From Geobacterales bacterium (GTDB taxonomy: Bacteria; Desulfobacterota; Desulfuromonadia; Geobacterales; DSM-12255), in contig JBBRBA010000051.1 of the NCBI GenBank assembly GCA_038206285.1, forward strand, positions 1 through 22,911: DNA of 22,911 bases, read 5' to 3'. A model generated the notes under the pieces. That model saw only the letters and a program-made list of their open reading frames with translations, was not told the DNA's origin and did no database searches. Shown one piece after another: positions 1 through 19,271 of this stretch (its first letter is position 1; every line of letters begins with the position of its first letter). Both the position numbers and the translations under genes were made by a program.

Positions 1-724
1 GATTATTGGTCAGGGTGACGTTGGTCAAAACAGGGCTGCTCCGCAGGCTGTAGATGCCGCCCCCTTCGAACCAGGCCTGATTGTTGCTGATGAGCAGATT
101 GGTCAGTATCGGGCTGGAACCCAGGTTATAGATGCCGCCGCCGGTGAGGGCGGCGCTATTGCCGGTAATGACGAGATTTGTCAGGGTGGGCGCGGCGTTG
201 ACGATGTAAAAACCGCCGCCGTCGCTGTTAACGCCCGCACCGTCGGCAGTGCCGCCGCTGATGGTGAAACGATCCAGCACCGCGCTGCTGTTGACGCCAT
301 TTGCCACCACCACATGCCAGGAGTTGTCACTTGTGTTCCCCGGCACGCCGATGTCGCCGCTTAAGGTAGTGACGTTGCCGCTGGCAGGCCGCTCGCTCCG
401 GGCGGCCTCACTGCCGCTGAAGCCGCCGTAGATGGCGACGCCGCTCTTCAGCACAAAGGAAACAGTCCGGTCAGCGCCGCTGGTCGGCCGATAGGTACCG
501 GCCTTGACCCAGATCTCGTCACCGGCGCCGGCCAGGGCAATGGCACTCTGCAGGTCGCAGGCGCTCCCCCAGGCGGCGCAGACGCCGCTGGCAAGGCCGC
601 CCGGCTGGGCAAAGCGGATGGTGGCAGCAGCCGGGGTGAAGGCGCCGCTCCAGAGGAGCAGGCAGAGAGCGGTCAGGAACAGTCCGGCAGCGCGGTGGGA
701 ATATTTTGTCTCGTTATGGTTCAT
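1..724 (-). CDS. Secreted right-handed parallel beta-helix repeat protein (Pmp-like / choice-of-anchor-Q-like). Only the N-terminal ~241 aa are present and the gene continues past the left edge of the window.
   Basis: I translated this myself. It is absent from the ORF track because no stop codon lies inside the window. ATG at 724-722 gives MNHNETKYSHRAAGLFLTALCLLLWSGAFTPAAA (signal peptide), then IRFAQPGG..CDLQSAIALAGAGDEIWVKAGTYRPT..FVLKSGVAIYGGF..TTLSGDIG..DNSWHVV..LDRFTISGG. Periodic repeats follow: GGGFYIV..SPTLTNLVITGN / GGGIYN..SPILTNLLISNN / GGGIYS..SPVLTNVTLTNN. A GAGG Shine-Dalgarno (SD) sequence lies about 10 nt upstream. Confidence 0.8.
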   Translation of the reverse strand, partial: MNHNETKYSHRAAGLFLTALCLLLWSGAFTPAAATIRFAQPGGLASGVCAAWGSACDLQSAIALAGAGDEIWVKAGTYRPTSGADRTVSFVLKSGVAIYGGFSGSEAARSERPASGNVTTLSGDIGVPGNTSDNSWHVVVANGVNSSAVLDRFTISGGTADGAGVNSDGGGFYIVNAAPTLTNLVITGNSAALTGGGIYNLGSSPILTNLLISNNQAWFEGGGIYSLRSSPVLTNVTLTNN

Positions 725-772
725 GGCATCAGCCTCGTCATCATGGTTTCGGCAACAGTTGTGCAGCTCGTA

Positions 773-2353
773 TTACGGCGTCTTCCTGGTATCCGGGTTC
801 TTCAACATAAGCTCCTGCGGTTTTTTCTCCACCACCCCGGTTGTGTCGAAAAAAATCTGCACCCTGTCGTATTCCCGCCCGGTGGGGGCAGTCAATACAA
901 CCCAGCAGAAGTGGCTGCCGGTCAGGTCAACGCTGCTCCGCAGCGGAACGGCAAAGGTCACCTGCTCGAGCGGAGCTATTGTGCGTGCCTGGGGGGAGAC
1001 CGCTTCAATCCCTGGTTGACAACCGGTCAGAGCCACAATGTAATCCGCGGTGGTGCTGCCGACGTTTTCAATAACGACATTCATCACCCCCTGCCGCGTG
1101 AGTGAGTTGAACGGAGTGGCGCTCGCATCCTTGATCCAGCCGACCGCTTCGTAGGTGGTAGTGCCGGACTGGGCCGCATCCAGCTCAAGAGCCACCCGCG
1201 AGCTGACCGGCTCAGTTTCTACGACCTTGAGAGCCAGACCGGTCATCTCTGCCAGCCCGGACTTGAAGAGCTTCTTCCCCCGGAGCAGGTAGTCGGTTTC
1301 CGCCTCCGGGTTGGCGGTCAGCAGCGCCAGATCCGCCGCCAGGAGCTGCTTCAGCTGATTCCCCAGACAGGCGCCGGCCACGCTTTTATCCGCCCCGGCC
1401 AGCTGGCTGCGAAAGGCGCTGTAACCGGTCCCCACCTTGTCGCAGTCACTGCCGTCAACCGAGACCAGCTGCCGTGGCAGCAGCAGCGCGCTGTTCCAGT
1501 CGGGCTTGCCGTTGACCAGGGCTGTCGGGAGATAGACGATAGAGCCGGAAAGATCAGGTGGCGCCTGCCCAGCATCGCCATCAGCGGTTAAGGTGGCATG
1601 GACCGGGTGCGCAGATATGTCAAGCCATACGGGAATGTCCGGGGAGAGGGAGAATGTAAATAATGTGGCAGCTGCTTTAGTGACAGTGAAGTTGATGCGG
1701 TAGTCACGGCGGGGCGGGTCGATCTCGTAGCCACGGTAGCTGACCCCGCTCTGGCGCAGGCAGTGGCCGATGGAGAAGGAATCGGTCAGGGTGGACTGTG
1801 CCGCCAGCTCTTTCTCCCCCCGCCACCAGGCGGCCGGGTCGCTGCTGCTTTTCAGCTGCAGAAGGCTGCGGTTGCTGCAGAATCCCTGGGAATCGGCGAT
1901 CCTGTTGCCGCCGCCATCAAGCTGCCAGCCACAGGTGGGGGCAGCAGCAGCGGAACCGTCACTGCAGGCGGCTATGCCGGGACGGCTGTTATTCACCCTG
2001 ACCAGTTCCTCATAGGGGGCAAAGTCCACCGTCTGCAGGTAGCGGAGCGGATAGCTCCAGACCGGCCGGGTCTTGACAAGATTAATAGTGATCGGCTGTT
2101 CCAGCGTGATCTTCCCTGTCGAAGAAGTATCCATGTACGCCACATCCAGATTAGCGGTGAGGCCAAAGGCGATGTCCAGGCTAAGCCACAGCTTATTCTC
2201 GCAGCTAATGTCCGAATCCGTGCTGACACAATATTTGATGGTCGTACCGATTGGCTCGCCGGCGCTGGCCGGCCGCTCCATGACCGGCGCCAGGGCCAGC
2301 AGGAGCAGCAGCGTAAGACAGCGGCGAAAGGCTGATGTAGGTAACATATCCAT
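773..2353 (-). CDS. HAP2/GCS1-like (fusexin-like) secreted protein, paralog 1 (526 aa). Has a signal peptide and no TM anchor.
   Basis: Complete ORF with TAAGGAG directly upstream of the ATG. N-terminal signal peptide RRCLTLLLLLALAPV..ASA. Ten Cys in the mature part are conserved across the three paralogs. Motifs I recognise from eukaryotic HAP2: C-x8-C-ENK near the N-terminus, PVWSYPLRYL, CGWQLDGGGNRIADSQGFC, HCLRQSGVSYRGYE, and the HAP2-GCS1 (PF10699-type) signature LLLPRQLVSVDGSDCDKVGTGYSAFRSQ..ACLGNQLKQLLAADLALL. The C-terminal Ig-like domain reads VMNVVIENVGSTTADYIVALTGC...C..VL. Confidence 0.78.
   Translation of the reverse strand: MDMLPTSAFRRCLTLLLLLALAPVMERPASAGEPIGTTIKYCVSTDSDISCENKLWLSLDIAFGLTANLDVAYMDTSSTGKITLEQPITINLVKTRPVWSYPLRYLQTVDFAPYEELVRVNNSRPGIAACSDGSAAAAPTCGWQLDGGGNRIADSQGFCSNRSLLQLKSSSDPAAWWRGEKELAAQSTLTDSFSIGHCLRQSGVSYRGYEIDPPRRDYRINFTVTKAAATLFTFSLSPDIPVWLDISAHPVHATLTADGDAGQAPPDLSGSIVYLPTALVNGKPDWNSALLLPRQLVSVDGSDCDKVGTGYSAFRSQLAGADKSVAGACLGNQLKQLLAADLALLTANPEAETDYLLRGKKLFKSGLAEMTGLALKVVETEPVSSRVALELDAAQSGTTTYEAVGWIKDASATPFNSLTRQGVMNVVIENVGSTTADYIVALTGCQPGIEAVSPQARTIAPLEQVTFAVPLRSSVDLTGSHFCWVVLTAPTGREYDRVQIFFDTTGVVEKKPQELMLKNPDTRKTP
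848..1156 (-). repeat. Near-identical segment shared by paralog 1 and paralog 3 (encodes the Ig-like C-terminal domain). The partner copy is at 4064-4372.
   Basis: My hand alignment is ungapped at an offset of 3216 nt. It shows about 17 mismatches in 309 nt, including a perfectly identical 119-nt run (1008-1126 = 4224-4342). The corresponding region of paralog 2 is much more divergent. Confidence 0.85.
1621..1780 (-). repeat. Near-identical segment shared by paralog 1 and paralog 2 (central region). The partner copy is at 3230-3389.
   Basis: My hand alignment at an offset of 1609 nt shows 4 mismatches in 160 nt. Weaker but still high similarity continues to about 2068/3677. Paralog 3 is less similar here. 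Confidence 0.85.
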
Positions 2354-2363
2354 GGAAAACTCC

Positions 2364-3962
2364 TTACGGTGTCTTGACGGTGGTATCGCTGTTTTTCAGC
2401 ATCTTCTCCAGCGGCGTCAGGTCACTGACGGCACTTGGGGTGAAGGAGACCAGCTGCTGGGCATATGGCAGCCCGGACGGGGCAGTGAGCGTCACCAGAC
2501 AGCTGCGGCTGCCGCTCTGACCGTTCTCTGCCGTCAGGTTAAAGAGAAACCCGGCCTGGCCACCCGGCGCCAGAGTGCTGGCCTGGGGAGGGATGCTCCC
2601 GCGGATGCCGGGCGTACAGCCGCTCACCGTGACCAGGTAATCGGCAGTGAGCGGACCGCTGTTGCTGACGATCACCTTCAGTGAAGCATCCCGCGAGGTG
2701 ACGCCATGGGGGACTACGCTGGCCGAAACAATCACCCCGGTGGATTCGCTGCTGCTGGCGCCGACCTGAGCGGCGTCAATCTGCAGGCTGAGGCTGGAGT
2801 AGACCAGCTCCGGGGCGATGACGGTCAACTTCTGGCCGGTAAGGGTCGCCAGACCGCCCTTGAAGAGCTTTTTGCCACGCACCAGATAGTCGGTCTCGGC
2901 ATCCGGATTGGCCGCCAGCCGCGCCAGATCCGACGCCAGGAGCTGCTTCAGCTGATTCCCCAGGCAGGCGCCGGCCACGGATCTATCAGCCACCCCCGCC
3001 TGACTGCGAAAGGCGCTGTAGCCGCTCCCCACCCGGTCGCAGTCGCTGCCGTCCCGCGACACCAGCTGCCGTGGCACCAGCAGCAGGTTGTTCTGCCAGT
3101 CGAGCACCTTCGGGTCGTTGGCCGGGGCGCTCGGCACATAGAGGATAGAGCCGGAAAGATCGGCCGGCTGGCCGGCCGGCTGGTCTTCCCCGGTCAGGGT
3201 TGCCTTGATCGGGTGCGCAGACGATCTGTCAAGCCATACGGGAATGTCCGGGGAGACGGAGAATGTAAATAATGTGGCAGCTGCTTTAGTGCCAGTGAGG
3301 TTGATGCGGTAGTCACGGCGGGGCGGGTCGATCTCGTAGCCGCGGTAGCTGACCCCGCTCTGGCGCAGGCAGTGGCCGATGGAGAAGGAGGCTGCCTGAG
3401 TGGACTGCGCTCCCAGCTCCTTTTCTCCCCGCCACCAGGCGGCCGGGTCGCTGCTGCTTTTCAGCTGCAAAAGGTTACGGTTGCTGCAAAACCCCTGGGA
3501 GTCGGCGATCCTGTTGCCGCCGCCATCAAGCTGCCAGCCGCAGCTGGGGGGGGCAGCAGCAACGCCATCCACGCAGGCAGCAATGCCGGGGCTGCTGTTG
3601 AGCACTTTTGTCAGCTCCTCATAGGGGGCAAAATCCACGGTGTGCAGGTAGCGGAGCGGATAGCTCCAGACCGGTTGGGACTTGGCAATATTAATTGTGA
3701 ACGGCGCTTCCAGCGTGGTCTTCTCTCCCCCACCTTTTTGCGTGACCGTCTCCATGTACGCCACATCAAGATTAACGCTATCGCCGAACCCGACCCGCAT
3801 CTGCAGATTGACCTTATTCTCGCAGCTAATGTCCGAATCCGTGCTGACACAAGCGGTATGTACGCTTGTCAGCGGCGCCGGCGCCGCTGACAAGGGGAAC
3901 GGCAGGGCCAGCAGCAGAGCCAGCGGGCAGAGTAACGTAAAGAGACTATTCTTGTTATTCAT
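2364..3962 (-). CDS. HAP2/GCS1-like (fusexin-like) secreted protein, paralog 2 (532 aa). Has a signal peptide and no TM anchor.
   Basis: Complete ORF with an AAGGAG SD upstream of ATG 3962. Signal peptide LFTLLCPLALLLALPFPLSA. It carries the same motif set as paralog 1: CVSTDSDISCENK, PVWSYPLRYLHTVDFAPYEEL, CGWQLDGGGNRIADSQGFCSNR, AAWWRGEKE, HCLRQSGVSYRGYEIDPP, LLLVPRQLVSRDGSDCDRVGSGYSAFRSQ..ACLGNQLKQLLASDLARLA. Its C-terminal Ig-like domain is divergent (LKVIVSNSGPLTADYLVTVSGC...SC.VTL). Confidence 0.78.
   Translation of the reverse strand: MNNKNSLFTLLCPLALLLALPFPLSAAPAPLTSVHTACVSTDSDISCENKVNLQMRVGFGDSVNLDVAYMETVTQKGGGEKTTLEAPFTINIAKSQPVWSYPLRYLHTVDFAPYEELTKVLNSSPGIAACVDGVAAAPPSCGWQLDGGGNRIADSQGFCSNRNLLQLKSSSDPAAWWRGEKELGAQSTQAASFSIGHCLRQSGVSYRGYEIDPPRRDYRINLTGTKAAATLFTFSVSPDIPVWLDRSSAHPIKATLTGEDQPAGQPADLSGSILYVPSAPANDPKVLDWQNNLLLVPRQLVSRDGSDCDRVGSGYSAFRSQAGVADRSVAGACLGNQLKQLLASDLARLAANPDAETDYLVRGKKLFKGGLATLTGQKLTVIAPELVYSSLSLQIDAAQVGASSSESTGVIVSASVVPHGVTSRDASLKVIVSNSGPLTADYLVTVSGCTPGIRGSIPPQASTLAPGGQAGFLFNLTAENGQSGSRSCLVTLTAPSGLPYAQQLVSFTPSAVSDLTPLEKMLKNSDTTVKTP
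3230..3389 (-). repeat. Partner copy of the 1621-1780 repeat (paralog 2 central region).
   Basis: See 1621-1780. Confidence 0.85.
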
Positions 3963-3985
3963 TGGATACTCCTTGGCAGGCGCCG

Positions 3986-5602
3986 CTACGGCGCCTTGAC
4001 CGTGGTGTCGCTATTTTTCAGCAGCAGCTTGTCTGGCGCAGTTTCACTGACAGCGCTTGTGGCGAAGAAAATCTGCACCCTGTCGTATTCCCGCCCGGTG
4101 GGGGCAAGCAATACAACCCGGCAGAAGTGGCTGCCGGTCAGATCGACGCTGCTCCGCAGCGGAAAGGCAAAGGTCACCTGCTCGCGCGGAACGATAGTGC
4201 GCGCCTGGGGGGAGACCGCTTCGATCCCTGGTTGACAACCGGTCAGAGCCACAATGTAATCCGCGGTGGTGCTGCCGACGTTTTCAATAACGACATTCAT
4301 CACCCCCTGCCGCGTGAGTGAGTTGAACGGAGTGGCGCTCGCCTCCGGTATCCAGCCGACCGCTTCGTAGGTTAAAGCGTCGACCTTGGATGGAGCCATC
4401 TCCAGGGCGAGGGTGGAATAGGTGAGCTCCGGGCTTTTGAGCAGCAGCGACGGCTTCCCCAGAGTGGCCATCTCTGCCAGACCGGCCTTGAAGAGCTGCT
4501 TGCCGGAGAGGAGATAGTCGGTCTCGGCAGCGGGATTGGCGGCCAGCCGCGCCAGATCGGCCTGATGGAGCTGCTTCAGCTGGTTCCCCAGGCAGGCGCC
4601 GGCCGCACTCCTGTCCGCCACCCCCCCCTGCCGCCGGAACGCCCCGTAACTGACCCCCACCTTATTGCAGCCGCTGCCGTCGCTGGTCACCATGGTGCGC
4701 GGCACCAGCAGCAGGTTGTGCGTCCAGTCGATCACCTTGGGATCATCGGCAGGCTCAGACGGTACGTAGAGGATGGAGCCGGAGAGGTTCAGCGGCACCG
4801 GCTGCGGAGATTCCCGCCCCACCAGGGAGATCTGCAGCGGATAGGTGACGCTGGCCGGGTCATCACGATAAAAAGGCTTGTCAACAGAGAGCGCGAAGGG
4901 GCTGAGCAGGGTCTCGCCGCTGTAGACGCCGCCGCTGATGTCGAACTCCCGCACCGGCGGATCGATCTCGTAGCCACGGTACTTGACCCCGGACTGCCGC
5001 AGGCAGTGGCCGATGGAGAAGGAGTCGGTCAGGGTGGACTGCGCCCCCAGCTCTTTCTCCCCCCGCCACCAGGCATCGCCCGGCCCACAGTTCTGCAGCT
5101 GTAACAGGTCGCGGTTGCTGCAGAATCCCTGGGAATCGGCAATGGGACTGCCCCCGCCATTAAGCTGCCAGCCGCAGGTGGGGGCGACAGCGTCCGAAGC
5201 ATCAACGCAAGAGGCAATGCCGGGGCGGCTGTTGACCACCTTGACCAGCTCCTCTTTTGGCGCATAATCCACGGTGTGCAGGTAGCGGAGCGGATAGACC
5301 CAGGAGGGCATGCTCTTGCTTACTTTGAGGGTTTCAGCCACGCTACCGCGACCGGCGGCGCCGCTGTAGTTAGCCATCAGGACAGCAGTGACCCCATTGC
5401 TCACCCCGACATTCACTGCCTGCCGGGGGGTACAGACCGTCCTGGTGACGGCCGAATACGACTGCTGGACGCACTTGGTGAAGCTGTTGCTGCCGATGAA
5501 CAGCGCGGCATCTGCCGGACAAGGGGGGCAGAGTGCGGCTGTCAGCAGCAGTAACAGGAGAGCAACGAAATGTGCCCTGGTTGTGATGTCAATAATCTTC
5601 AT
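3986..5602 (-). CDS. HAP2/GCS1-like (fusexin-like) secreted protein, paralog 3 (538 aa). Has a signal peptide and no TM anchor.
   Basis: Complete ORF with a GGAG SD upstream of ATG 5602. Signal peptide HFVALLLLLLTAAL. The N-terminal ~95 aa are divergent. After that: WVYPLRYLHTVDYAPKEEL, CGWQLNGGGSPIADSQGFCSNR, GDAWWRGEKE, HCLRQSGVKYRGYEIDPP, LLLVPRTMVTSDGSGCNKVGVSYGAFRRQ..ACLGNQLKQLHQADLARLA. The Ig-like C-terminal domain is nearly identical to that of paralog 1. Confidence 0.78.
   Translation of the reverse strand: MKIIDITTRAHFVALLLLLLTAALCPPCPADAALFIGSNSFTKCVQQSYSAVTRTVCTPRQAVNVGVSNGVTAVLMANYSGAAGRGSVAETLKVSKSMPSWVYPLRYLHTVDYAPKEELVKVVNSRPGIASCVDASDAVAPTCGWQLNGGGSPIADSQGFCSNRDLLQLQNCGPGDAWWRGEKELGAQSTLTDSFSIGHCLRQSGVKYRGYEIDPPVREFDISGGVYSGETLLSPFALSVDKPFYRDDPASVTYPLQISLVGRESPQPVPLNLSGSILYVPSEPADDPKVIDWTHNLLLVPRTMVTSDGSGCNKVGVSYGAFRRQGGVADRSAAGACLGNQLKQLHQADLARLAANPAAETDYLLSGKQLFKAGLAEMATLGKPSLLLKSPELTYSTLALEMAPSKVDALTYEAVGWIPEASATPFNSLTRQGVMNVVIENVGSTTADYIVALTGCQPGIEAVSPQARTIVPREQVTFAFPLRSSVDLTGSHFCRVVLLAPTGREYDRVQIFFATSAVSETAPDKLLLKNSDTTVKAP
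4064..4372 (-). repeat. Partner copy of the 848-1156 repeat (paralog 3 C-terminal domain).
   Basis: See 848-1156. Confidence 0.85.
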
Positions 5603-5624
5603 GGTGAACTCCGTTGTATGAGCT

Positions 5625-5831
5625 TCATAGCTGTTCCTTTGACGTTTTCCGGCGCTGCCGTTTGCCTGCGCCCTGGTTCAACACTGCCGCCAGTTCATTC
5701 AGATCGGTAAAAGGGGTCCGACTACTGCTGCCGTCCAGCATCTCCACCTGACCGGTGAGCTTGTGCGGATTTTCGCTGTCGTGGCGGTAGATTCTTACAA
5801 GGTAACTTTGTGCGGTCGATAGTTCGGTCAT
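5625..5831 (-). CDS. Small hypothetical protein (68 aa from ATG 5831; the ORF track extends it to a GTG at 5870).
   Basis: The ORF sits 22 nt upstream of paralog 3 on the same strand. Sequence: MTELSTAQSYLVRIYRHDSENPHKLTGQVEMLDGSSSRTPFTDLNELAAVL followed by a basic tail GKRQRRKTSKEQL. No convincing SD precedes either candidate start. I do not recognise a named family. Coding status rests on length, position and the lack of an alternative. Confidence 0.45.
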   Translation of the reverse strand: MTELSTAQSYLVRIYRHDSENPHKLTGQVEMLDGSSSRTPFTDLNELAAVLNQGAGKRQRRKTSKEQL

Positions 5832-5853
5832 GATGACATGGTGGCACACGCCT

Positions 5854-5874
5854 ACCCACAGATGACCCACAGAT
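5854..5874 (-). promoter_or_regulatory. Tandem 10-bp direct repeat with 11-bp phasing. Candidate regulator-binding site upstream of the small ORF and fusexin-like block.
   Basis: The plus strand reads acccacagat-g-acccacagat (5854-5863 and 5865-5874). On the minus strand this is ATCTGTGGGT-C-ATCTGTGGGT. It lies between the regulator stop (5943) and ATG 5831. Confidence 0.3.
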
Positions 5875-5942
5875 TGGAAAATAACTAAAGAATGGAATAT
5901 GTATTGATCAGTTTTGCGCGGGGAAGAGCGGCAAATGCGGCA

Positions 5943-8900
5943 TTATTGCTGTTGAATGATGGCGGTATAGACGGCGGTGGTTTCCGGGGAGGGCTCGATG
6001 CCGAGTTCGCTCTGAAGCAGGCTGCGGCAGCGTTTGTAGCTCCTGACGGCGTCGGCGTGGTTGCCGAGCCGCTTTTGACAGATCATCAGGCGGCGGTAAA
6101 ACTCTTCGGCCAGGCTGTCGGTCTCGATCCCTTTCGTGTACAGCTCAGAGGCCTTTTCCCACTCACCGACCCGTTCATTCTGACGGCCCGCTGCAAGAAC
6201 GATGCGCAGCAGCCGGTTCTTAAGGGTTTCACGACTGGAGAGTACCCACGGCAAGGCGGAATCAGCAGGGAGGAAAGCTCCTTTGTTCAGACCGAGTGCC
6301 TTTTCGCACGACAGCACGGACTGGTCGTCCGCGAGCGCTTGCGCCCGGTCGAAAATATGTCGGAGCGCCAGGCTGTCCACCCAGCAATAAAGGGGATTGA
6401 TGGTCAGCTGGCGAGTCCGGCAGGTGACGACGTCATCCCTGCCGAGCAGCCGCCGCAGCCGGCTCAGGGTGGTTTCGAAGGACTTGCGGGCCTGGTCGCC
6501 ATCGGCATCGGGCCAAAGGACATCGGTCAGTCGCTCCTCGGGCACGTCCCGGCCGCCGAAGGCGATCAGGCTTTTTAGCAGTTCCAGCGGCTTTTTCTGC
6601 TCCTTGCCGCTAAAAGGCAGCGGCTCGCTGTCCCTGATGATCTCGAAACGGCCAAGGGTATAGACCTTGACCGGATAGGGCCATTCCTCCAGCAGCGCGG
6701 CAGACGGTTCGACACCGCTGTCTGTCACTGGCGGCGCCAGGTGAAGCTTCCTGATCAGCCCCTTCACGTACTCCGGCTCGATCCGTTCCTCCAGCGCCGT
6801 GGCACAGAGAAAGCCCATGACCGCTGGCTGATAGAACTCCAGATGGAGATAGCCGTGCCGCCGCCCCAGCCCGAACCCGCGGTGCAGCGCCAGCAAACCT
6901 TCGCTTCGCATGCCGTCCTGCAACAGAAACCAGGCTTCGAGCAGCAGCGAGTACCACTCCATGACCTGGCTCTTCATGCTCAGGCTGATGCGGTGGGCCG
7001 TCCGCACGAGCGTGGTCGCCTCGCCGGTGCGCCCCTGCATGAAAGCGGCCTGGGCCATGCCGATATGCCATAATGCGCGGTAGTAAGGGGTTCCCATCCG
7101 TTCGATCTGCCCGGAGACGGCCTCCAGGTGCCCGGCGGCACGCGACGGGTTGTTGCAAAGGAGCGCCAGCCAGGAGGCATTGACGTGATAGAAAAAGACG
7201 TTCAGCGCATTCTCCATGCCGAGCAGGGAGCGCAGCTGCTGTTGCAGCGCCAGTTCAGCGTTCGCCAGGTTGCCGGGCGCCAGCTCCGCCGCCGCCTTGA
7301 AGCTCCACAACAGGGAGTCGTAAATATGGACGCCGCTGTTCGCGGAGATCTCCAGCCCTTCGGTGAGGACCTGCAACGCCTCCTGATACCCGGCGGTAAT
7401 CCAGCAATGGATACCTTTCATCAGCTTGATGCGGATGAGCGCAAAGGGGGACGGCTGGCGATGACGAACCTCGACCGCCGCTCGTTCGAGCAGCAGAGCA
7501 TTCTTGTCGTACTCTCCCCGCCAGAGATAATAGATGCTCATACAGAAGACCGTATCCATCTGGATATCAAAGGACGGTTTCAGTTGCAGCAGGCCGGTTA
7601 CTCGCTGCAGCCACAACTCTACCCTGTGCGGCTGATCGGTTTTTCTCAATGTGAGTGAGAGGAGCATTCGCGATGAGACGATCAGTTCGGTGTCCAGGGT
7701 TGGAAATGATGGAAAGCTGCGCTGCAGTTCGTCAAAATCCACCAGGCAGTCATCCAGAGGCTTCCACTCGTCCCCGAAGACATGGGTGTCGACGATGGCC
7801 GCCCACGCAAGATAGCAGCCGGAGGGATCGCCATCCGCCCTGAAAGCTGTCAGGGCCTTTTCCAGAAAACTCCTGCTACGGGGGAGGTCAAGCGGAAACG
7901 AACTGATACCGTTCCAGTACAAAAGCCAGGGGTCATGATCCAGAATTTCGCCGGGGATACAGGCGAGCCATTCTGCCAGGGTCCGGCTCCTCCCCTGGAG
8001 GAGCAGTTCCCTTCCGTGACAGGCCACCATCCTGGCCAGGCTGTCATGGTCTCCGGATTTTGCGTACAAAAGCGCTGCGTCGTCCCGCTGCCCCGACTGT
8101 TCCAGCAGCAGTGCGGCATCTCTTTGCAGCCGCGCCACTCTATCAGCACTGAATTCGCTCACAGCCCTGCTCAGAAGAAATTCCCTGAAGAGAGGATGGT
8201 AGCGATAGTCCTGCCCGCTGCCGGACAGTTTTTCGGTAAAATAATGATGGCGGTTCAGGCTGGCGAGGATATCCCCGGCAGCTGCGAGTCCGGTCAGCTT
8301 TTCGGCCAGAGAAACGCTGAGCATGGGGAGCATGGCGGTTTTCAGCAGAAATTCCTGAATATCTTTCTCTTTGTGATTGAACAGCTCTCCGGCAAAATAA
8401 TCGAAGACCCTGTCTGAAGCCAAGTCCGCGAAAGATGTGATCCCGTCCCATTCCAACCCTGCCCGCTCCTGCATCAGGATTATCCCGGCAACCCACCCTT
8501 CGGTCCGCGCATGCATCCGTACGACCAGTTCCGGGTCAGGAAGCGGTCGGCGGCGCGCCATCAGTTCGCTGGATTCGTCGACGGTGAAGCGGAGATCATT
8601 ATTGTCGAGGGTTGCAATTTTGCCGTTGGACTGCAACCGCGCCAGTGAGGGGGGCGGCAGCTCCCGGCTCAGGACTACAACATGAATGTCGGCGCAGATC
8701 GAAGTCAGTGCGGTGGCGATCATGTCGTGGAACGCGGCCTCGGTCGGTACGTCCTGGTAGTTGTCAAGGACGATGACAAACCCGGGCAATCTCCCGTCTG
8801 TTGCCGGGGAAGGCTGGAGGCGACTGCAAAGTATTTCGAAATAACGACGGGTAAAGGTTGGGACGCCGGCAAGATATTCCGGAGTCAGAAGCGGCAGCGG

Positions 8901-9182
8901 TTTCCTGTGGCGCGGTGCGGCAAGCTTTGCTGCCAGCCCCATGTAGTAGAAAAAGGTGGCGAGGTCTGCATCCCCTTCATCACATTGATACCAGATACAG
9001 GGAAGCTCCTGCGCATCAAGGTAACTGGCGACAAGGGTCGATTTGCCCGAACCGCCAGGCGCAGTTATCCAGGTAACCGGATGCTGTGCCGCTGAATCAA
9101 GCAGTGCAAACAGTCGTTCCCTTTGGACCGGCTTCGTCAGAGTCGGTCGCGCTAATTTTGCCAATGCCGCTTTAGTAGCCAT
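5943..9182 (-). CDS. Large STAND-type signal-transduction ATPase regulator (1079 aa). It has a MalT-like N-terminal P-loop NTPase, a helical/TPR-like middle region, and a C-terminal OmpR/PhoB-type winged helix plus BTAD (SARP-type) module.
   Basis: N-terminus LAKLARPTLTKPVQRERLFALLD..VTWITAPGGSGKSTLV (Walker A). FVIVLDNYQDV (Walker B-like). A long helical repeat region follows. The last ~242 aa (about 5946-6671) read VKVYTLGRFEIIRDSEPLPFSGKEQKKPLELLKSLIAFGGRDVPEERLTDVLWPD..ARKSFETTLSRLRRLLG (wHTH), then ELYTKGIETDSLAEEFYRRLMICQKRLGNHADAVRSYKRCRSLLQSELGIEPSPET (BTAD). Confidence 0.85.
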   Translation of the reverse strand: MATKAALAKLARPTLTKPVQRERLFALLDSAAQHPVTWITAPGGSGKSTLVASYLDAQELPCIWYQCDEGDADLATFFYYMGLAAKLAAPRHRKPLPLLTPEYLAGVPTFTRRYFEILCSRLQPSPATDGRLPGFVIVLDNYQDVPTEAAFHDMIATALTSICADIHVVVLSRELPPPSLARLQSNGKIATLDNNDLRFTVDESSELMARRRPLPDPELVVRMHARTEGWVAGIILMQERAGLEWDGITSFADLASDRVFDYFAGELFNHKEKDIQEFLLKTAMLPMLSVSLAEKLTGLAAAGDILASLNRHHYFTEKLSGSGQDYRYHPLFREFLLSRAVSEFSADRVARLQRDAALLLEQSGQRDDAALLYAKSGDHDSLARMVACHGRELLLQGRSRTLAEWLACIPGEILDHDPWLLYWNGISSFPLDLPRSRSFLEKALTAFRADGDPSGCYLAWAAIVDTHVFGDEWKPLDDCLVDFDELQRSFPSFPTLDTELIVSSRMLLSLTLRKTDQPHRVELWLQRVTGLLQLKPSFDIQMDTVFCMSIYYLWRGEYDKNALLLERAAVEVRHRQPSPFALIRIKLMKGIHCWITAGYQEALQVLTEGLEISANSGVHIYDSLLWSFKAAAELAPGNLANAELALQQQLRSLLGMENALNVFFYHVNASWLALLCNNPSRAAGHLEAVSGQIERMGTPYYRALWHIGMAQAAFMQGRTGEATTLVRTAHRISLSMKSQVMEWYSLLLEAWFLLQDGMRSEGLLALHRGFGLGRRHGYLHLEFYQPAVMGFLCATALEERIEPEYVKGLIRKLHLAPPVTDSGVEPSAALLEEWPYPVKVYTLGRFEIIRDSEPLPFSGKEQKKPLELLKSLIAFGGRDVPEERLTDVLWPDADGDQARKSFETTLSRLRRLLGRDDVVTCRTRQLTINPLYCWVDSLALRHIFDRAQALADDQSVLSCEKALGLNKGAFLPADSALPWVLSSRETLKNRLLRIVLAAGRQNERVGEWEKASELYTKGIETDSLAEEFYRRLMICQKRLGNHADAVRSYKRCRSLLQSELGIEPSPETTAVYTAIIQQQ

Positions 9183-9212
9183 CGCATCCGTAGATTATTG
9201 AAGTTGGCAATT

Positions 9213-9230
9213 CACTAATGAAAATTAGTG
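9213..9230. promoter_or_regulatory. Perfect inverted repeat CACTAAT-GAAA-ATTAGTG in the leader/promoter of the STAND regulator gene.
   Basis: Seen directly about 31 bp upstream of ATG 9182. Two further palindromes follow: ATGTTGCAACAT at 9246-9257 and GAACA-N6-TGTTC at 9264-9279. Confidence 0.3.
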
Positions 9231-9300
9231 TACAGCAGCTGTCGCATGTTGCAACATAAACCGGAACATGATCCTGTTCTCTGCCGGCAAAAATGTCTGC

Positions 9301-9342
9301 AGACACAAAACGCCCCCCACTCTGGCAAGTGAAGGGCGTTTT
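9301..9342 (-). terminator. Rho-independent terminator downstream of frr.
   Basis: The minus strand reads AAAACGCCC-TT-CACT-TGCCAG-AGTG-GG-GGGCGTTTT followed by GTGTCT. This is a GC-rich interrupted stem ending in a T run, about 33 nt after the frr stop. Confidence 0.65.
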
Positions 9343-9374
9343 CAATTCTACGTAGAAAGCTGCGAGGGGCTGAA

Positions 9375-9932
9375 CTACACCTCCATGACCTCTTTCTCTT
9401 TATGGCCAAGCACTTCGTCAACTTTGGCAACGTGCTTGTCAGTCAGGTCCTGGACCTCTTTTTCGACCCGCTTCAGTTCGTCTTCAGTAATCTTCTTGTC
9501 CTTTTCCAGCTTCTTCAGCTTGTCGATGGCATCACGGCGAATGTTGCGCAGGGCGATCCGGTCATCTTCGGCTTTTTTCTTCAGATCCTTGACAATATCC
9601 TTGCGCCGCTCTTCGGTGAGCGCGGGGAGTATAAGGCGGATCAGCTTGCCGTCGTTGGAGGGGGTCAGACCGATATTCGCGTTAAGAATCGCTTTTTCTA
9701 TCAGGGCGATCAACTTCGGCTCCCAAGGGGAGATGGTGATGGTTCTGGCCTCCGGCACTGCCATGTTGGCAACGGCGCTGATCGGTGAAAGGTTGCCGTA
9801 ATAGTCAACTTTTATGTCATCAAGCAGCGCTGTAGAGGCTCGCCCGGTCCGGATTTTTGCATATTCACGGCGAAGAGTGTCAATAGTCTTGACCATATGA
9901 TCTGTCATGTCTTTGATAATATCTTTTGTCAT
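9375..9932 (-). CDS. frr: Ribosome recycling factor.
   Basis: 185 aa. Contains IRTGRASTALLDDIKVDYYG..SPISAVANMAVPEARTITISPWEP, LTEERRKDIVK and RNIRRDA, the typical RRF sequence and length. The SD GGGGAG lies inside the pyrH 3' end. It follows pyrH by 2 nt, the classical gene order. Confidence 0.97.
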   Translation of the reverse strand: MTKDIIKDMTDHMVKTIDTLRREYAKIRTGRASTALLDDIKVDYYGNLSPISAVANMAVPEARTITISPWEPKLIALIEKAILNANIGLTPSNDGKLIRLILPALTEERRKDIVKDLKKKAEDDRIALRNIRRDAIDKLKKLEKDKKITEDELKRVEKEVQDLTDKHVAKVDEVLGHKEKEVMEV

Positions 9933-9934
9933 AA

Positions 9935-10663
<729 letters not shown>

Positions 10664-10820
10664 CTAGCCCAGGAACTGGATAAGTGCGTTAACGAAATTA
10701 TTTTCCGATCAGCCCCGAAGGCGGGATAAGTACGTGCACAAAATAACTTCTGGAAAAACGCAGAATTGATTTTTAACGTACTAAAAACGCAGAAAGTAAT
10801 TTCTAACTTACTAAAGGATG

Positions 10821-10849
10821 AAAAAAAGGCCGACCCTGAAGGTCGGCCT
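10821..10849 (-). terminator. Rho-independent terminator downstream of tsf.
   Basis: The minus strand reads AGGCCGACC-TTCAG-GGTCGGCCT followed by TTTTTTT. This is a perfect 9-bp GC-rich stem, about 8 nt after the tsf stop. Confidence 0.85.
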
Positions 10850-10856
10850 GAATCAA

Positions 10857-11753
10857 TCAGTTGCCAGCAGCAGCTGCAACTTCGGCAGCAAAGTCACACT
10901 CTTTCTTCTCTAACCCTTCGCCCAGCACGAATCTGGCAAAGCGGATTACCGTGACATCAGCCCCGGCAGCCTTGAGAAGCTGCTGGATGGTTTTGTCGGG
11001 ATCCTTGACAAAGCTCTGCTCAAGGAGGCAGACTTCACCGTAGAACTTGCCGATCTGACCCTCGATGATCTTCTCGACGATGTTCTCCGGTTTGCCGGTC
11101 TGTCTTGCCTTGTCACGGTAGATGTCCTTCTCGCGTTCGAGAACATCTGTTGAAACCTCTTCACGGCGGACAAATTGCGGTGCGGCAGCGGCGACATGCA
11201 TGGCTACGTCTCTGGCAACAACTGCCAGATCGCCGGTGCCTGACAGTTCTACCATTACACCTATTTTGCCGCCGGCATGAATGTAGGAACCGATAAACCC
11301 TTCAGTTGCAAAGCGGGCAAAGCGGCGAATCTGCAGATTTTCGCCGATAACGGCAATCGCTTCGTTAAGGGTGGTCTGCACGGTTTTGCCAGGCACTTTG
11401 ACAGAATCCTGAGAAAAGAGGGCGTTATTGTCAGCCGGAGCGGCAACCAGTATCTGGTTGGCAACATCGGCAATAAATGCCAGGAACTTGTCGGTCTTGG
11501 CGACAAAATCTGTTTCGCTGTTTATCTCAACCAGCGCACCGCTTTTACCGTCAGCAGCTATCAGTGCGGCAACCAGCCCTTCGGTTGCGGCTCTGCCGGA
11601 CTTTTTGGCGGCAGCGGAAAGGCCTTTCTTGCGCAGAAAATCTACCGCCTTCTCCATATCGCCTTCGGTCTCTTCAAGGGCCTTTTTGCAATCAAGCATG
11701 CCGGCGCCGGTACTTTTACGAAGTTCATTAACCTGTGCAGCTGTAATACTCAC
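10857..11753 (-). CDS. tsf: Translation elongation factor Ts.
   Basis: Contains [80 protein letters not shown] and [11 protein letters not shown] place the start at GTG 11753 because AGGAGG (11764-11759) sits 5 nt upstream and EF-Ts normally begins M-SITAAxV. The ORF-track ATG at 11771 is the alternative. Confidence 0.95.
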
Positions 11754-11802
11754 CTTATCCTCCTGGGTCATAGCGGCAGATGCCGCAAGCCGGTAAATTT
11801 TC

Positions 11803-12573
11803 TTATTCGGCAGACGCTTCTTCTACCGCATCTTCCGGGCTGCCTTCTTCAACAGCATCACCTTCATTGTAGTTCTGCAGCTGCTGGTCCCTGATTTCGC
11901 GACCTTCGATGATTGCATCGGCAATCTTGCTGCTCAAAAGGCGGATGGCGCGGATTGCATCATCGTTGCCGGGTATTATATAGTCGATCATGTCCGGATT
12001 GCAGTTGGTGTCAACAATTGCGACTACCGGAATGCCAAGTTTCTTGGCTTCACAGACGGCAATCTCTTCATTCTGCGGGTCAACTACAAAGAGGACACCC
12101 GGCAGCTTGCCCATACCTTTGATCCCGCCAAGGGTCTTTTCAAGTTTTTCACGCTCTTTATCAAACTGGAGACGCTCTTTCTTGGTATATGCCTCGATAG
12201 AGCCGTCAGCAAACATGCTGTCGAACTTTTTCAGGCGTTCGATGCTCTGCTTGACCGTGGAAAAATTGGTCAGCATGCCGCCGAGCCAGCGCTGATTCAC
12301 GTAATGCATGCCGCAGCGGCTTGCCTCTTCGGCAACGGCGTCCTGTCCCTGCTTCTTGGTGCCGACAAAAAGGAATGTTTCGCCTGCCCTGGCAGCTTCG
12401 GTGACAAAGTTGTAAGCGTTCTTGAAAAGGCGGACGGTTTTCTGCAGGTCAATGATGTAGATGCCGTTTCTTGCTCCGAAAATGTATGGCTTCATCTTCG
12501 GGTTCCAGCGTTTTGTCTGGTGACCGAAATGAACACCGGCCTCCAGAAGCTCCTTCATGGTAATACTGGACAT
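11803..12573 (-). CDS. rpsB: 30S ribosomal protein S2.
   Basis: [46 protein letters not shown].. is the typical S2 sequence. The start is set at ATG 12573 (AAGGAGAG SD upstream). The 29-aa N-terminal extension in the ORF track (to 12660) has no S2 counterpart. Confidence 0.95.
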
Positions 12574-12775
12574 TTTTGCTCTCCTTGGATTTGGTTTTTC
12601 CCCTCCGCATACCCATAACCATGGGATCCTTTGCAGGACACCCCCCATAGCCGACGGCAAGCGTGTGAAATTTCTACAGCGAATTTATATAACACAATCG
12701 ACCTGTTACAGGCAAGAGAAAACGAAAGCAGGCGGAGCCGTTTACATCCTTTCCGCCTTGATGTATGATGCCGCC

Positions 12776-13936: not shown

Positions 13937-15027
13937 ATATTCTCAGTCGCTATCTTGTGCGTACCTATCTGGGGATGATTGCCACTTGCCTGGGAGCATT
14001 TGTTGCCATTTATCTCCTCGTCGATTTCATGGAAAAGTTTGGCAAATTCAGCCGCGCCGGCGCGCCGCTGACATCAGTTCTGCTCTACTTCCTCTGCAAG
14101 ATTCCGGAGATCATCGCCCAGACAACTTCGATGGCGGTTCTTATGGGAACGATCCTGGCTATCGGCACGCTGTCAAAAAACAGCGAGATAACCGCCATGC
14201 GGAGCAGCGGTATAAGCCTTGTGCAGATCGGCAGACCGCTGCTGGTTACGGCCGCTCTTTTCAGCCTCATGCTGCTGCTGATGCAGGAGTTTGTTACGCC
14301 GGCATCCAATGAGAAAATGCGCCACATCGAACAGGTGGAGATGAAGAAGGTGCAGCCGCAGGAATATGAGAAGTGGACTCTTTTCCGCTGGAACAACATC
14401 TGGCACCGGGATGATAACCTGATTCTGCAGGCAAAGCTCTTCAATCCCGACACTTCAACCCTTTCCGGAATCACGTTATGGGAGGTTGACCGGGAATTGA
14501 GGCCTGTCTCAAGGATTGATGCTGCAACGGCTATCCCGGCTGTCAACGGCTGGCAGTTTCAGAATTTGACCAAAAGAGTTTTTACTCAGCCTGGTGGCGT
14601 TGCGGTATCGAGCAACAGTAAGGAATTTGTCAAACTGGATCTTGTGGTTGCCGATCTGAAAGTCGTTGCCAAATCTGCCGAAGATATGGGGTTCCGCGCG
14701 CTGTTACGCTACTGCGAGACAGTAAGCGCCAGCGGTTATGATGCAACCCACTACCTGACCCTGCTGCATGCAAAACTATCGCTGCCGTTTGCCGCCCTGA
14801 TCATGGCTTTCCTCGGGATACCGTTTTCGCTGAAGGATAATCGCTCCGGAGGAGTATGGATAGGGGTCGGCATCAGTATTCTCATCGGTTTTTCCTACTT
14901 TATCATCAATGCGCTGCTGCTGTCATTGGGACAGGCCGGAGCGCTCCCGCCGCCGGTTGCCGCCTGGGCGGCAAATCTGCTGTTTGCCGGGGCGGGATTA
15001 TGGTTTACACTTACGGTAGACTCTTAA
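13933..15027 (+). CDS. lptG: LPS export ABC transporter permease LptG (YjgP/YjgQ family).
   Basis: MNILSRYLVRTYLGMIATCLGAFVAIYLLVDFMEKF.. with the same TM / periplasmic domain / TM architecture as lptF and translational coupling to it. Confidence 0.88.
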   Translation: MNILSRYLVRTYLGMIATCLGAFVAIYLLVDFMEKFGKFSRAGAPLTSVLLYFLCKIPEIIAQTTSMAVLMGTILAIGTLSKNSEITAMRSSGISLVQIGRPLLVTAALFSLMLLLMQEFVTPASNEKMRHIEQVEMKKVQPQEYEKWTLFRWNNIWHRDDNLILQAKLFNPDTSTLSGITLWEVDRELRPVSRIDAATAIPAVNGWQFQNLTKRVFTQPGGVAVSSNSKEFVKLDLVVADLKVVAKSAEDMGFRALLRYCETVSASGYDATHYLTLLHAKLSLPFAALIMAFLGIPFSLKDNRSGGVWIGVGISILIGFSYFIINALLLSLGQAGALPPPVAAWAANLLFAGAGLWFTLTVDS

Positions 15028-15048
15028 CGGTAAATCAGGGAGCACTTT

Positions 15049-17653: not shown

Positions 17654-17676
17654 GTTAGCATAAGTAACGTAGCGCA

Positions 17677-17876: not shown

Positions 17877-19271
<1,395 letters not shown>

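Follow-up and report, generated by a model that had tools for sequence, protein, structure and literature searches.

Three tandem bacterial genes for HAP2/GCS1-family class II ectodomains on a Geobacterales contig

Background

HAP2 (GCS1) is the sperm-egg fusion protein of plants, algae and protists. Archaeal Fsx1, a prokaryotic fusexin, is said by Moi et al. to carry an extra fourth domain and C-terminal transmembrane helices. The gene for Fsx1 (PDB 7P4L) is patchily distributed, on DNA that is mobile or accessory, and Fsx1 is the only prokaryotic fusexin in Moi et al. 2022 (PMC9259645). In algae and plants the action of HAP2 is preceded by that of the Ig-repeat adhesion proteins FUS1/GEX2 (PMC13601591).

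The window analysed here is the whole stretch of 22,911 nt of contig JBBRBA010000051.1 (assembly GCA_038206285.1, Geobacterales bacterium). The original prediction, made from the letters alone, had placed on it three tandem genes for HAP2/GCS1-like class II ectodomains (A, B and C) and held that no bacterial HAP2 locus had been characterised. On the latter point a full-text literature search found no paper describing bacterial HAP2, and Moi et al. 2022 (PMC9259645) agrees.

The proteins share with eukaryotic HAP2 (PF10699; 5MF1, 6DBS, 6E18, 5OW3, 5OW4, 7S0K) full-length homology (E down to 1e-66), the three-domain class II fold, ten Cys positions, the Arg-Glu-Gln network beneath the fusion loops, a disulfide-bearing Ig-like domain III and a stem-like C-terminal segment. 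They differ from it in having no transmembrane anchor and no cytoplasmic basic tail, in lacking the eukaryote-conserved Cys at the FCCxC motif together with the partner in the ij loop, and in presenting a bacterial signal peptide, an operon of 1-3 tandem paralogues and a linked STAND/SARP regulator and beta-helix/Ig protein. Whereas eukaryotic HAP2 has variable tip loops, those of the bacterial proteins are short and highly conserved (WWRGE..LG.QST..SF). Fsx1 resembles them as a prokaryotic class II ectodomain on accessory DNA, but it is a remote relative (bacterial-clade profile E 0.15), the bacterial family falling within the HAP2 branch itself. In overall fold and domain order the proteins are also like flavivirus E, alphavirus E1, bunyavirus Gc and EFF-1 of C. 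elegans, all of which, unlike A, B and C, are membrane-anchored.

Table 1. Coordinates of the features described in the window
Feature	Position	Strand	Size	Description
HAP2/GCS1-family gene A	3986..5602	minus	538 aa	Pfam PF10699 E 2e-60
HAP2/GCS1-family gene B	2364..3962	minus	532 aa	Pfam PF10699 E 3e-58
HAP2/GCS1-family gene C	773..2353	minus	526 aa	Pfam PF10699 E 2.7e-66
Gene-conversion tract, domain III of C	838..1137			94% DNA identity to 4054-4353 in A; repeat search and per-domain identities
Gene-conversion tract, C vs B	1614-1913			about 92% DNA identity to 3223-3522
Gene-conversion tract, C vs B	2192-2231			100% DNA identity to 3813-3852
Domain II tip (cd loop, fusion-loop region), C residues 159-198	1760..1879	minus		GFCSNRSLLQL...AAWWRGEKEL...SFSIGHC; from alignments
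c1, 5' part	1..724	minus	241 codons, runs off the window	secreted beta-helix protein, PMP-like repeats
Small ORF	5625..5831	minus	68 aa	MTELSTAQSYLVRIYRHD...; between regulator and first HAP2 gene; conserved
Tandem direct repeat	5854..5873	minus		TCTGTGGGT-n-ATCTGTGGGT; just upstream of the 68-aa ORF; conserved
Regulator	5943..9182	minus	1079 aa	MalT-like STAND NTPase, TPR repeats, C-terminal OmpR-type wHTH and BTAD (SARP-like)

Homology to HAP2 and conserved cysteines

The three genes lie in tandem on the minus strand where they had been placed (Table 1). All three products match the PF10699 profile (gathering score 27.4 bits), the matches spanning about positions 2-479 of its 515. With phmmer against the PDB, Trypanosoma cruzi HAP2 was recovered at E 6e-35 and Chlamydomonas HAP2 at E 1e-25; the match of B to 5ow4 (E 6e-35) extends across residues 38-507, and a profile of the bacterial clade recovers all solved HAP2 structures (E 7e-60 to 4e-39). 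This resemblance is far above chance. Mean identity is 41.7% within the bacterial clade and 25.6% between it and the eukaryote-type sequences. The motifs from which the family had been recognised were identified in the proteins: CVSTDSDISCENK in B and C, together with PVWSYPLRYL, CGWQLDGGGNRIADSQGFC, HCLRQSGVSYRGYE, DGSDCDKVGTGYSAFRSQ and ACLGNQLKQL. DLARLA was found in A and B but not in C, where the sequence is DLALLT.

Mature C contains ten Cys (42, 51, 130, 141, 159, 198, 304, 329, 445 and 483), all aligned to columns with Cys in 82-98% of eukaryote-type HAP2, and the tip loop of A (QNCGPG) adds an eleventh. The bacterial proteins lack three Cys that eukaryotes conserve, at alignment positions 160, 162 and 321. 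C304/C329 are kept or lost as a pair across subgroups, as are C160/C321. From the alignment and this co-variation we infer that five disulfides stabilise each protein, a subset of the eukaryotic set. The expectation of ten conserved Cys in five class II disulfides thus held for the number and the pairs, but these are only part of the eukaryotic complement, positions 160, 162 and 321 being missing. With these three Cys missing from the tip and ij-loop region, the tip may be built differently.

Predicted structure and the domain II tip

Protein C was modelled with AlphaFold (AF2; pLDDT 92.7, pTM 0.87; 86-96 in the C-terminal tail), and Foldseek gave as best superposition post-fusion Chlamydomonas HAP2 protomers (E 1e-40, TM 0.77-0.85), in line with the proposed class II fold. 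Fsx1 followed at E 2e-17 (TM 0.47, 12% identity), and EFF-1 and the viral class II proteins at E 1e-15 or weaker (TM <=0.5, identity 8-12%). The model adopts the post-fusion hairpin; this conformation is not independent evidence, because HAP2 structures were included in AF2 training and eukaryotic HAP2 in the alignment supplied to it.

Profile searches, predicted structure and fold search, mapping of Cys and key residues, and genomic context agree in bearing out the main claim. The three observations that the original prediction had named as fatal to it were all looked for, and the opposite was found in each case: PF10699 matches, a class II domain arrangement and HAP2-compatible disulfides. 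A, B and C are almost certainly true bacterial representatives of the fusexin (class II fusogen) superfamily, within its HAP2/GCS1 branch, and there is hardly any doubt that each comprises the whole ectodomain, D1, D2 and D3, followed by a stem-like tail.

R178, E115 and Q333 of C are invariant and align with R185, E126 and Q379 of Chlamydomonas HAP2, the network that organises its fusion loops (PMC5332557). The alignment thus suggests that the Arg178-Glu115-Gln333 network is retained at the tip, where hydrophobic and aromatic residues (L164/L165/L167, W176/W177 and F193) and the motif WWRGE are also conserved. Over residues 177-191 the bacterial clade has a column entropy of 1.49, versus 3.06 for eukaryote-type sequences, and the tips of A, B and C are 73-88% identical. 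A protein rather than a lipid as partner could explain such high conservation.

Domain mosaic of the paralogues

Gene A has a domain I of its own type and shares its domain III type with C, whereas B shares its domain I type with C and has a domain III of its own; C is therefore a mosaic, like B in domain I and like A in domain III. By position, gene A is orthologous to the first gene in loci L007 and L010 (58% identity), and the 532-aa second gene in loci L006 and L007 is orthologous to B. Gene conversion, seen in the tracts of Table 1, swaps domains among the three genes and maintains the mosaic. The same arrangement (domain I, B with C; domain III, A with C) was identified in two organisms, a hint that the paralogues may form a hetero-oligomer.

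Operon and neighbouring genes

Each HAP2 gene is preceded by a Shine-Dalgarno (SD) site (AAGGAG or GGAG), and gaps of 23, 10 and 48 nt separate the genes, as expected for the operon that had been proposed. The neighbouring frr, pyrH, tsf and rpsB were also correctly named, being recognised together with lptF and lptG on the contig by NCBIfam equivalog models. The locus follows a cassette recurring on independent contigs, formed by a MalT/SARP-type regulator, 1-3 HAP2 genes and a secreted beta-helix/Ig adhesin-like protein, the last represented here by c1.

The regulator was assigned from Pfam (BTAD 5e-22, AAA_16, TPR_MalT) and NCBIfam (MalT 6e-50 in the N-terminal part, AfsR/SARP 9e-12 in the C-terminal part); its counterpart upstream of the triplet in locus L010 is 67% identical, and L016 also has one. 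The 68-aa ORF, without match in Pfam, NCBIfam, PADLOC or PHROG, corresponds to a 68% identical ORF that occupies the equivalent place in L010, L015 and L007. The repeat upstream of it, conserved in place in L010 and L015, is a candidate operator of the SARP/BTAD-type regulator.

c1 adjoins HAP2 in at least 5 loci; its identity is 65% with a 1637-aa protein in L006 and 51-55% with a 762/805-aa protein in L008. In full-length relatives this part is followed by Laminin_G, Big_3_5, fn3, He_PIG and cadherin-like arrays (Pfam), which points to an adhesin-like protein. The pairing of HAP2 with a large Ig-like-repeat protein recalls FUS1/GEX2 (PMC13601591) by analogy only, being functional there and genetic, within one operon, here; moreover c1 begins with a PMP-like beta-helix and is secreted, with no transmembrane segment.

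Export and the missing anchor

Judged by eye, each of the three proteins begins with a segment that looks like a signal peptide and has an AXA site, in accordance with the export that had been predicted. No transmembrane anchor was found in the three proteins, and this N-terminal segment is the sole hydrophobic one in all of the about 50 bacterial-type clusters. The proteins end at the point where eukaryotic HAP2 enters the membrane. Canonical fusion by A, B and C acting alone is disfavoured because of the missing anchor. In neither the HAP2 proteins nor c1 was there a membrane anchor or recognised sorting signal that would bring them to the diderm surface or keep them there, and they could equally well be periplasmic.

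Relatives P0030, P0032, P0033 and L003 have an N-terminal TIG domain and collagen triple-helix repeats fused to HAP2. In other relatives the position of the eukaryotic transmembrane segment is taken by C-terminal Bact_surface_Ig-like or dockerin domains; in the AT-rich relatives P0061 and P0072 a real transmembrane segment with a polybasic tail lies there. The collagen, TIG, Ig and dockerin fusions suggest an extracellular, trimeric state.

Possible function

In soluble form, class II ectodomains insert and trimerise and do not fuse membranes. The most likely function of A, B and C would be that of an exported, trimerising, membrane-inserting module. They would leave the cytoplasm by their signal peptides and act outside the cytoplasmic membrane as trimerising heads inserting into a bilayer, in this lineage probably as a hetero-oligomer of the three; co-transcribed c1 would supply target recognition or tethering and the adjacent MalT/SARP-type regulator would turn on expression. 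The target membrane would be firmly attached to, or perturbed, whereas full fusion would require an anchor that A, B and C do not encode. This mechanism is tentative, with somewhat less than an even chance of being right; the explanation as a whole, comprising identity, anatomy, mechanism and origin, is held with slightly more confidence than doubt. Neither the heterotrimer nor the adhesin partner is a general requirement, because many loci have a single HAP2 gene without c1.

It is unlikely that the proteins are non-fusogenic surface components, with the class II fold co-opted as a stiff scaffold rich in disulfides (matrix, S-layer-like or adhesin component) and the tip binding a protein or glycan rather than a bilayer. 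A tip conserved far above the eukaryotic level is what a specific ligand would produce, the anchor is absent, and the proteins are linked or fused with classic bacterial adhesin modules (collagen, TIG, Ig-like, dockerin and the beta-helix/cadherin-like c1); however, R178, E115, Q333 and the exposed Trp, Leu and Phe are retained across phyla, which is hard to explain without membrane insertion.

That they are true fusogens is slightly less probable again. A partner (c1, LPS or a dockerin/cohesin-type interaction) would hold the ectodomains on the outer surface of the producer or on a membrane, and they would merge bacterial membranes by the canonical class II hairpin; candidate events are fusion between cells or outer membranes, fusion of outer-membrane vesicles, or fusion with the membrane of a eukaryotic host or prey. 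The full machinery is kept, with the tip network and stem-like tail, the hairpin appears in the model of C, dockerin/Ig C-termini or the P0061/P0072 anchors occupy the eukaryotic anchor site in other lineages, and the c1 Ig-array recalls, by analogy only, the adhesion step before HAP2 fusion (PMC13601591). The HAP2 ectodomain has been described to co-float with liposomes (PMC5332557). Yet the proteins of the window have no anchor or recognised tethering domain, which leaves them among the soluble forms, and the collagen-fused N-terminal variants would be constitutive trimers, a mismatch with a monomer-to-trimer fusion trigger.

Clearly improbable is a secreted membrane-attacking effector, in which c1 would bind a target cell (a grazing protist, an animal host or a competitor) and the trimer of HAP2-like proteins would insert into the membrane of that cell and damage it. 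In its favour, neither of the two secreted components has an anchor, and their accessory cassette is under tight regulation; a lectin-like Laminin_G_3 domain was recognised in one full-length c1 relative, which also weakly matches the clostridial neurotoxin receptor-binding domain, and one homologue comes from an animal symbiont. Against this, class II proteins are not known to act as toxins or pore formers, and the cassette is devoid of immunity genes, secretion-system genes and toxin domains.

Distribution and bacterial provenance

Homologues form about 50 clusters and come from Nitrospira, Planctomycetota, Desulfobacterota and Gammaproteobacteria MAGs, one of them the symbiont Olavius Delta 1. 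A bacterial HAP2 family in several phyla has direct bearing on the origin of the eukaryotic gamete fusogen. A, B and C are truly bacterial genes: viral or eukaryotic DNA mis-binned or mis-assembled into the contig, as might be suspected from a GC step of about 52% to about 62% near 9.2 kb, between frr and the regulator, and from the apparently metagenome-type assembly, was rejected and is effectively refuted by intron-free genes with SD sites, gaps of 10-48 nt and bacterial signal peptides, by bacterial-type genes on both flanks (the MalT/SARP regulator and the PMP/Big-type protein), by recurrence of the cassette across several assemblies that are independent of one another and across MAGs from four phyla, and by the lack of phage or defence matches. 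The cassette is a rare accessory element of patchy distribution, with matches in only 4 of 185,579 species genomes. It was probably moved by horizontal transfer, and its GC3 is higher than that of the flanks in five loci.

Family membership and predicted fold

The three tandem genes A, B and C encode proteins of the HAP2/GCS1 family, and every HAP2 motif quoted in the original prediction was identified in their reading frames. The Pfam profile PF10699, proposed there as a check, was matched with E-values of 2e-60 (A), 3e-58 (B) and 2.7e-66 (C), at 198-225 bits (curated cut-off 27.4 bits) and over profile positions ~2-479 of 515; NCBIfam contains no model for these HAP2-like proteins. Matches of the window proteins in the PDB (phmmer) were HAP2 ectodomains only: T. 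cruzi 5OW4 (6e-35), Chlamydomonas (1e-25) and, at 3e-9, Arabidopsis and Cyanidioschyzon. In the reverse direction, a profile built from the bacterial clade matched every solved HAP2 with 7e-60 to 4e-39 whereas archaeal Fsx1 (7P4L) reached only E = 0.15, which assigns the window proteins to the HAP2 branch proper.

The AlphaFold (AF2) model of protein C, built on an alignment of 148 sequences, was confident (pLDDT 92.7, pTM 0.87; C-terminal tail 86-96) and is to be read as fold compatibility and not as an independent conformation, AF2 having been trained on HAP2 structures and the alignment containing eukaryotic HAP2. It superseded a model from 15 sequences with a poor domain II tip (pLDDT 68). 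The predicted structure presents the three-domain build of class II proteins: a beta-sandwich domain I (D1), an elongated domain II (D2) with tip loops and an Ig-like domain III (D3). The closest structures in Foldseek were those of Chlamydomonas HAP2 (6DBS, 6E18, 5MF1; E 1e-40 to 1e-33, TM 0.77-0.85) and Arabidopsis HAP2 (E 4e-34), followed with probability 1.00 by Fsx1 (E 2e-17, TM 0.47), EFF-1 (E 2e-15) and the bunyavirus and flavivirus class II proteins Gc/E (E 1e-14 to 1e-10). The best viral predicted structure (BFVD) scored E 8e-16 and other BFVD glycoproteins were weaker. Structural homology places the model in the fusexin superfamily (HAP2, EFF-1/AFF-1, viral class II, Fsx1), and neither the profiles (E 0.15 vs 7e-60) nor the TM scores (0.47 vs 0.77-0.85) place it closer to Fsx1 than to HAP2.

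Cysteines and tip residues

All ten mature Cys of C fall in columns that are 82-98% Cys among eukaryote-type HAP2. Alignment positions 160, 162 and 321, which are Cys in 94-99% of eukaryote-type HAP2, have no Cys in the window proteins; these are the Cys of the FCCxC motif and one in the ij loop. Across bacterial subgroups C304 and C329 occur or are missing jointly, as do C160 and C321, a pattern that disulfide partners would show; the pairing is read from Cys co-variation rather than from coordinates. Protein A carries an eleventh Cys in its first tip loop (QNCGPG), seemingly without partner and also identified in the homologous proteins P0003, P0007, P0008 and P0020; this residue might be reactive or link two chains through a disulfide.

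Residues R178, E115 and Q333 of protein C are invariant in the 15-sequence alignment and align with R185, E126 and Q379 of Chlamydomonas. In that protein the Arg185-Glu126 salt bridge and the Gln379 network organise the fusion loops and are essential for fusion and liposome binding (Fedry et al. 2017, PMC5332557). The alignment thereby points to the presence of the same Arg-Glu-Gln fusion-loop network in the window proteins. The tip, with consensus GFCSNR-LLQL...WWRGE.ELG.QST...SF.I.HCLR, is among the best-conserved parts of the bacterial proteins, contrary to eukaryotes: column entropy over residues 177-191 is 1.49 in the bacterial clade vs 3.06 in the eukaryote type, and tip identity between paralogues is 73-88%.

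Gene organization and export

A Shine-Dalgarno sequence (AAGGAG or GGAG) precedes every start, as predicted, and the gaps of 23, 10 and 48 nt within the operon make it a tight one. Candidates for the anticipated signal peptides were also found, each protein having an N-terminal signal-peptide-like stretch that ends in an AXA site and is its sole hydrophobic segment. A lipoprotein anchor was ruled out by eye, the signal-peptide Cys having no preceding lipobox. The genes frr, pyrH, tsf and rpsB lie on the same contig, in agreement with the original prediction, and lptF and lptG were identified there as well, all of them above the NCBIfam equivalog cut-offs, which makes the host a diderm bacterium. 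Its RpsB may be of the Desulfuromonadia/Geobacter type of Desulfobacterota.

Coordinates of the HAP2 genes, of the elements next to them and of relatives on other contigs (L, homologous loci; P, homologous proteins)
Feature	Position	Strand	Description
HAP2 gene A	3986-5602	-	538 aa
HAP2 gene B	2364-3962	-	532 aa
HAP2 gene C	773-2353	-	526 aa
c1, first 241 codons	1-724		65% identity to L006 protein
Regulator	5943-9182		67% identity to L010 regulator
68-aa ORF	5625-5831	-	conserved, no family match, between regulator and first HAP2 gene; also in L010, L015, L007
Tandem repeat TCTGTGGGTnATCTGTGGGT	5854-5873	-	conserved, between regulator and first HAP2 gene; also in L010, L015, L007
P0061, P0072 HAP2 fragments	L011 1-1190 and L013 1-1712		very AT-rich short contigs, GC 28-30%, GC3 12-17%
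Collagen-stalked HAP2	L003 497-2656		Olavius-associated Delta 1 MAG; long collagen GXY repeats

Absence of a membrane anchor

Downstream of the signal peptide no hydrophobic segment was identified, either in A, B and C or in the ~50 clusters of bacterial type, and the C-terminal TM anchor with its usually basic cytoplasmic tail, a canonical trait of HAP2, is thus lacking in A, B and C; in eukaryote-type matches a hydrophobic segment lies at about residue 520-600. The window proteins stop ~20 residues past domain III, in a conserved tail (P.EL.LKN.DT..K.P). In the relatives P0061 and P0072 a TM helix follows the equivalent motif, SKYSWE.Q.KN, after ~25-30 residues, with a short Cys-rich segment in between and a polybasic tail after the helix. 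The window proteins thus correspond to ectodomain plus stem. P0061 and P0072 share 55-66% identity with the bacterial-type proteins and fall inside the bacterial cluster of neighbor-joining (NJ) trees with weak support; they could be the mark of another inter-domain transfer. Lacking the anchor, A, B and C are members of HAP2 by homology, as a non-canonical architectural variant.

Other relatives carry additional modules. In P0030, P0032, P0033 and L003 (Olavius symbiont) the ectodomain follows an N-terminal TIG or DUF7467 domain and collagen triple-helix repeats, a layout of stalk and trimeric head that resembles collectins and C1q. P0033 is encoded on a contig of 3.1 kb in an NCBI assembly (GCA_024449935.1) that is very fragmented. 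C-terminal Bact_surface_Ig-like domains were identified in P0021, P0028, P0038 and L002, dockerin-type tails in P0031 and P0035, and a dockerin-like motif in P0036, P0038 and P0165-P0170. Collagen serves as a stalk for trimerisation, and Ig and dockerin modules tether proteins outside the cell; the latter two occupy the place of the eukaryotic TM. Taken together, the fusions speak for an extracellular, trimeric and surface-associated role.

The recurring cassette

The HAP2 genes belong to a cassette in which a MalT-like STAND-TPR-SARP/BTAD regulator is followed by one to three HAP2 genes and by c1. It was identified in the window, in L006/L007/L010/L014/L015, in L016 and in L018/L019, and lacks the regulator in L008/L009/L017. 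The Pfam domains of the regulator are BTAD (5e-22), AAA_16/NPHP3_N, TPR_MalT and, weakly, Trans_reg_C; its NCBIfam matches to MalT (6e-50) and AfsR (9e-12) are partial and below the equivalog cut-offs. This domain content, a STAND NTPase with a TPR sensor and a wHTH/BTAD DNA-binding module, is that expected of a SARP/MalT-type regulator. The c1 product is a large secreted protein with a PMP-like beta-helix start followed by Laminin_G, Big_3_5, fn3, He_PIG and cadherin-like arrays, and neither a C-terminal sorting signal nor another recognisable anchor was found in its relatives. In the triplet lineage, where both are conserved, the tandem repeat may serve as a SARP operator and the 68-aa ORF may be an extra small component of the cassette. 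The regulator of L016 is in two pieces (385 and 721 aa) and the HAP2 gene is present as two ORFs (278 and 251 aa) in L018 (2526-4109) and L019 (321-1904); these split ORFs may be frameshifts, pseudogenes or assembly errors.

The triplet

The three-gene arrangement is repeated in a second organism (L006/L007), with proteins of 550, 532 and 538 aa, and the window and L007 share the same mosaic of domains. D1 is alike in genes 2 and 3: 64-70% identity between B and C, A being 35-48% identical to both, and 62-81% in L007. D3 is alike in genes 1 and 3: 91% between A and C, B being 38% identical to both, and 78% in L007. DNA tracts 92-100% identical between paralogues occur in proteins otherwise ~60% identical, which indicates ongoing gene conversion limited to particular domains. 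As the two organisms keep identical domain combinations, the three proteins are suggested to work together. Class II proteins function as trimers, and on this ground A, B and C may form a heterotrimer.

Distribution and phylogeny

An exhaustive profile HMM search across 1.84 billion cluster representatives yielded 1206 matches, where the best ~50 clusters were of the anchor-less bacterial type and were followed by typical TM-anchored eukaryotic HAP2. A genome scan with a single protein as query found no match, and the alignment-based scan identified four MAG loci, in a Nitrospira, a Planctomycetota, an Olavius-associated Delta 1 (Desulfobacterota) symbiont and a gammaproteobacterium. Another 35 loci came from metagenome scans, some of their contigs being 27-317 kb long. 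On average, sequences of the bacterial set share 41.7% identity with one another and those of the eukaryote type 29.4%, and identity between the two sets is 25.6%. Bacterial-type sequences form one cluster in the NJ trees, with weak deep nodes (bootstrap of the bacterial clade 49, C-terminal half), and these trees give neither the root nor the direction of transfer. Contigs L036-L040 (JAESGV01..., GC ~40%) contain intron-free HAP2 ORFs of ~697 aa with 26-28% identity to the window proteins, present as several copies on separate contigs of a single assembly.

The family was identified in 4 of 185,579 species representatives, and GC3 is 74-79 in the window cassette vs 55-68 in its flanks, being likewise raised in L006, L005, L008 and L001. 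Rarity and GC3 together point to a mobile accessory cassette. The GC content falls from ~60-65% in the cassette (1-9182) to ~50-53% in the housekeeping part (9375-22911), a step which suggests horizontal acquisition; neither a tRNA nor an integrase is present at the junction (~9183-9374). An explanation as phage, defence system or RNA element was dropped, there being no PHROG, PADLOC or Rfam match and no tRNAs.

Possible function and significance

The analysis establishes the homology and the predicted fold, a conserved tip network, an export signal, the lack of an anchor, conservation of operon and cassette, and domain-specific gene conversion. Beyond these, A, B and C would be exported, folded oxidatively and serve as trimerising heads, the tip of D2 would insert into or bind a target bilayer, c1 would supply recognition or tethering, and the STAND/SARP regulator would limit expression to a particular signal. 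As no anchor is present, a canonical hairpin cannot draw two membranes together, and attachment to or perturbation of membranes is likelier than fusion.

The rivals to this attachment or perturbation reading are a fusogen tethered by a partner, a pure adhesin and a secreted effector. For the first there are the fusion-loop residues and the modules that replace the TM in some relatives, and against it the missing anchor. A pure adhesin would share the surface-associated role argued from the collagen, Ig and dockerin fusions, and the fusion-loop residues would be set against it; an effector would share the export signal and lack of anchor. The most far-reaching combination holds that bacterial HAP2 are functional fusogens tethered by c1, dockerin or Ig and mediating cell-cell, outer-membrane or vesicle fusion, that their clade is sister to or source of eukaryotic HAP2 and not a late eukaryotic loan, and that the triplet is an obligate heterotrimer; taken jointly this is improbable. 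If true, the gamete fusogen of LECA would be of bacterial (or bacterial mobile-element) origin and the conserved triplet would provide the first example of a heteromeric class II fusogen.

HAP2 is taken to be the ancestral gamete fusogen of eukaryotes, and its viral, archaeal or cellular origin is debated. To our knowledge the prokaryotic relatives described so far are only the remote archaeal Fsx1 proteins, while the bacterial clade is much nearer to HAP2, and papers to mid-2026 still name Fsx1 as the prokaryotic fusexin. A literature search found no description of a bacterial HAP2 locus, as the original prediction had supposed, although a prior one is possible among the many subscription-journal papers outside its coverage. 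The HAP2 family itself is known; new here is its presence in a further domain of life, with new architecture and genetic context. Its branch thereby gains a third domain of life and fusexin phylogeny new outgroups for rooting, in a clade that spans several phyla with architectures of its own (anchor-less, collagen-stalked, dockerin- or Ig-tailed, triplicated). The ectodomains are small, intron-free and disulfide-bonded, and hence expressible and testable. The clade raises the possibility that class II proteins mediate attachment to, or fusion of, membranes in bacteria, and even if the proteins turn out to be adhesins they would exemplify a fusogen fold repurposed.

A separate gene cluster

The window also contains a cluster unrelated to HAP2, at 15049-15915 (+), 15896-17818 (-), 19306-20715 (-) and 20731-21756 (-), which includes a secreted TIG-domain protein, two large membrane proteins and a STELLO-like glycosyltransferase. 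One of the membrane proteins has C-terminal TPR repeats and the other a PMT_2-like domain, and they share 27% identity over 190 aa. This cluster may be a module for protein or envelope glycosylation.
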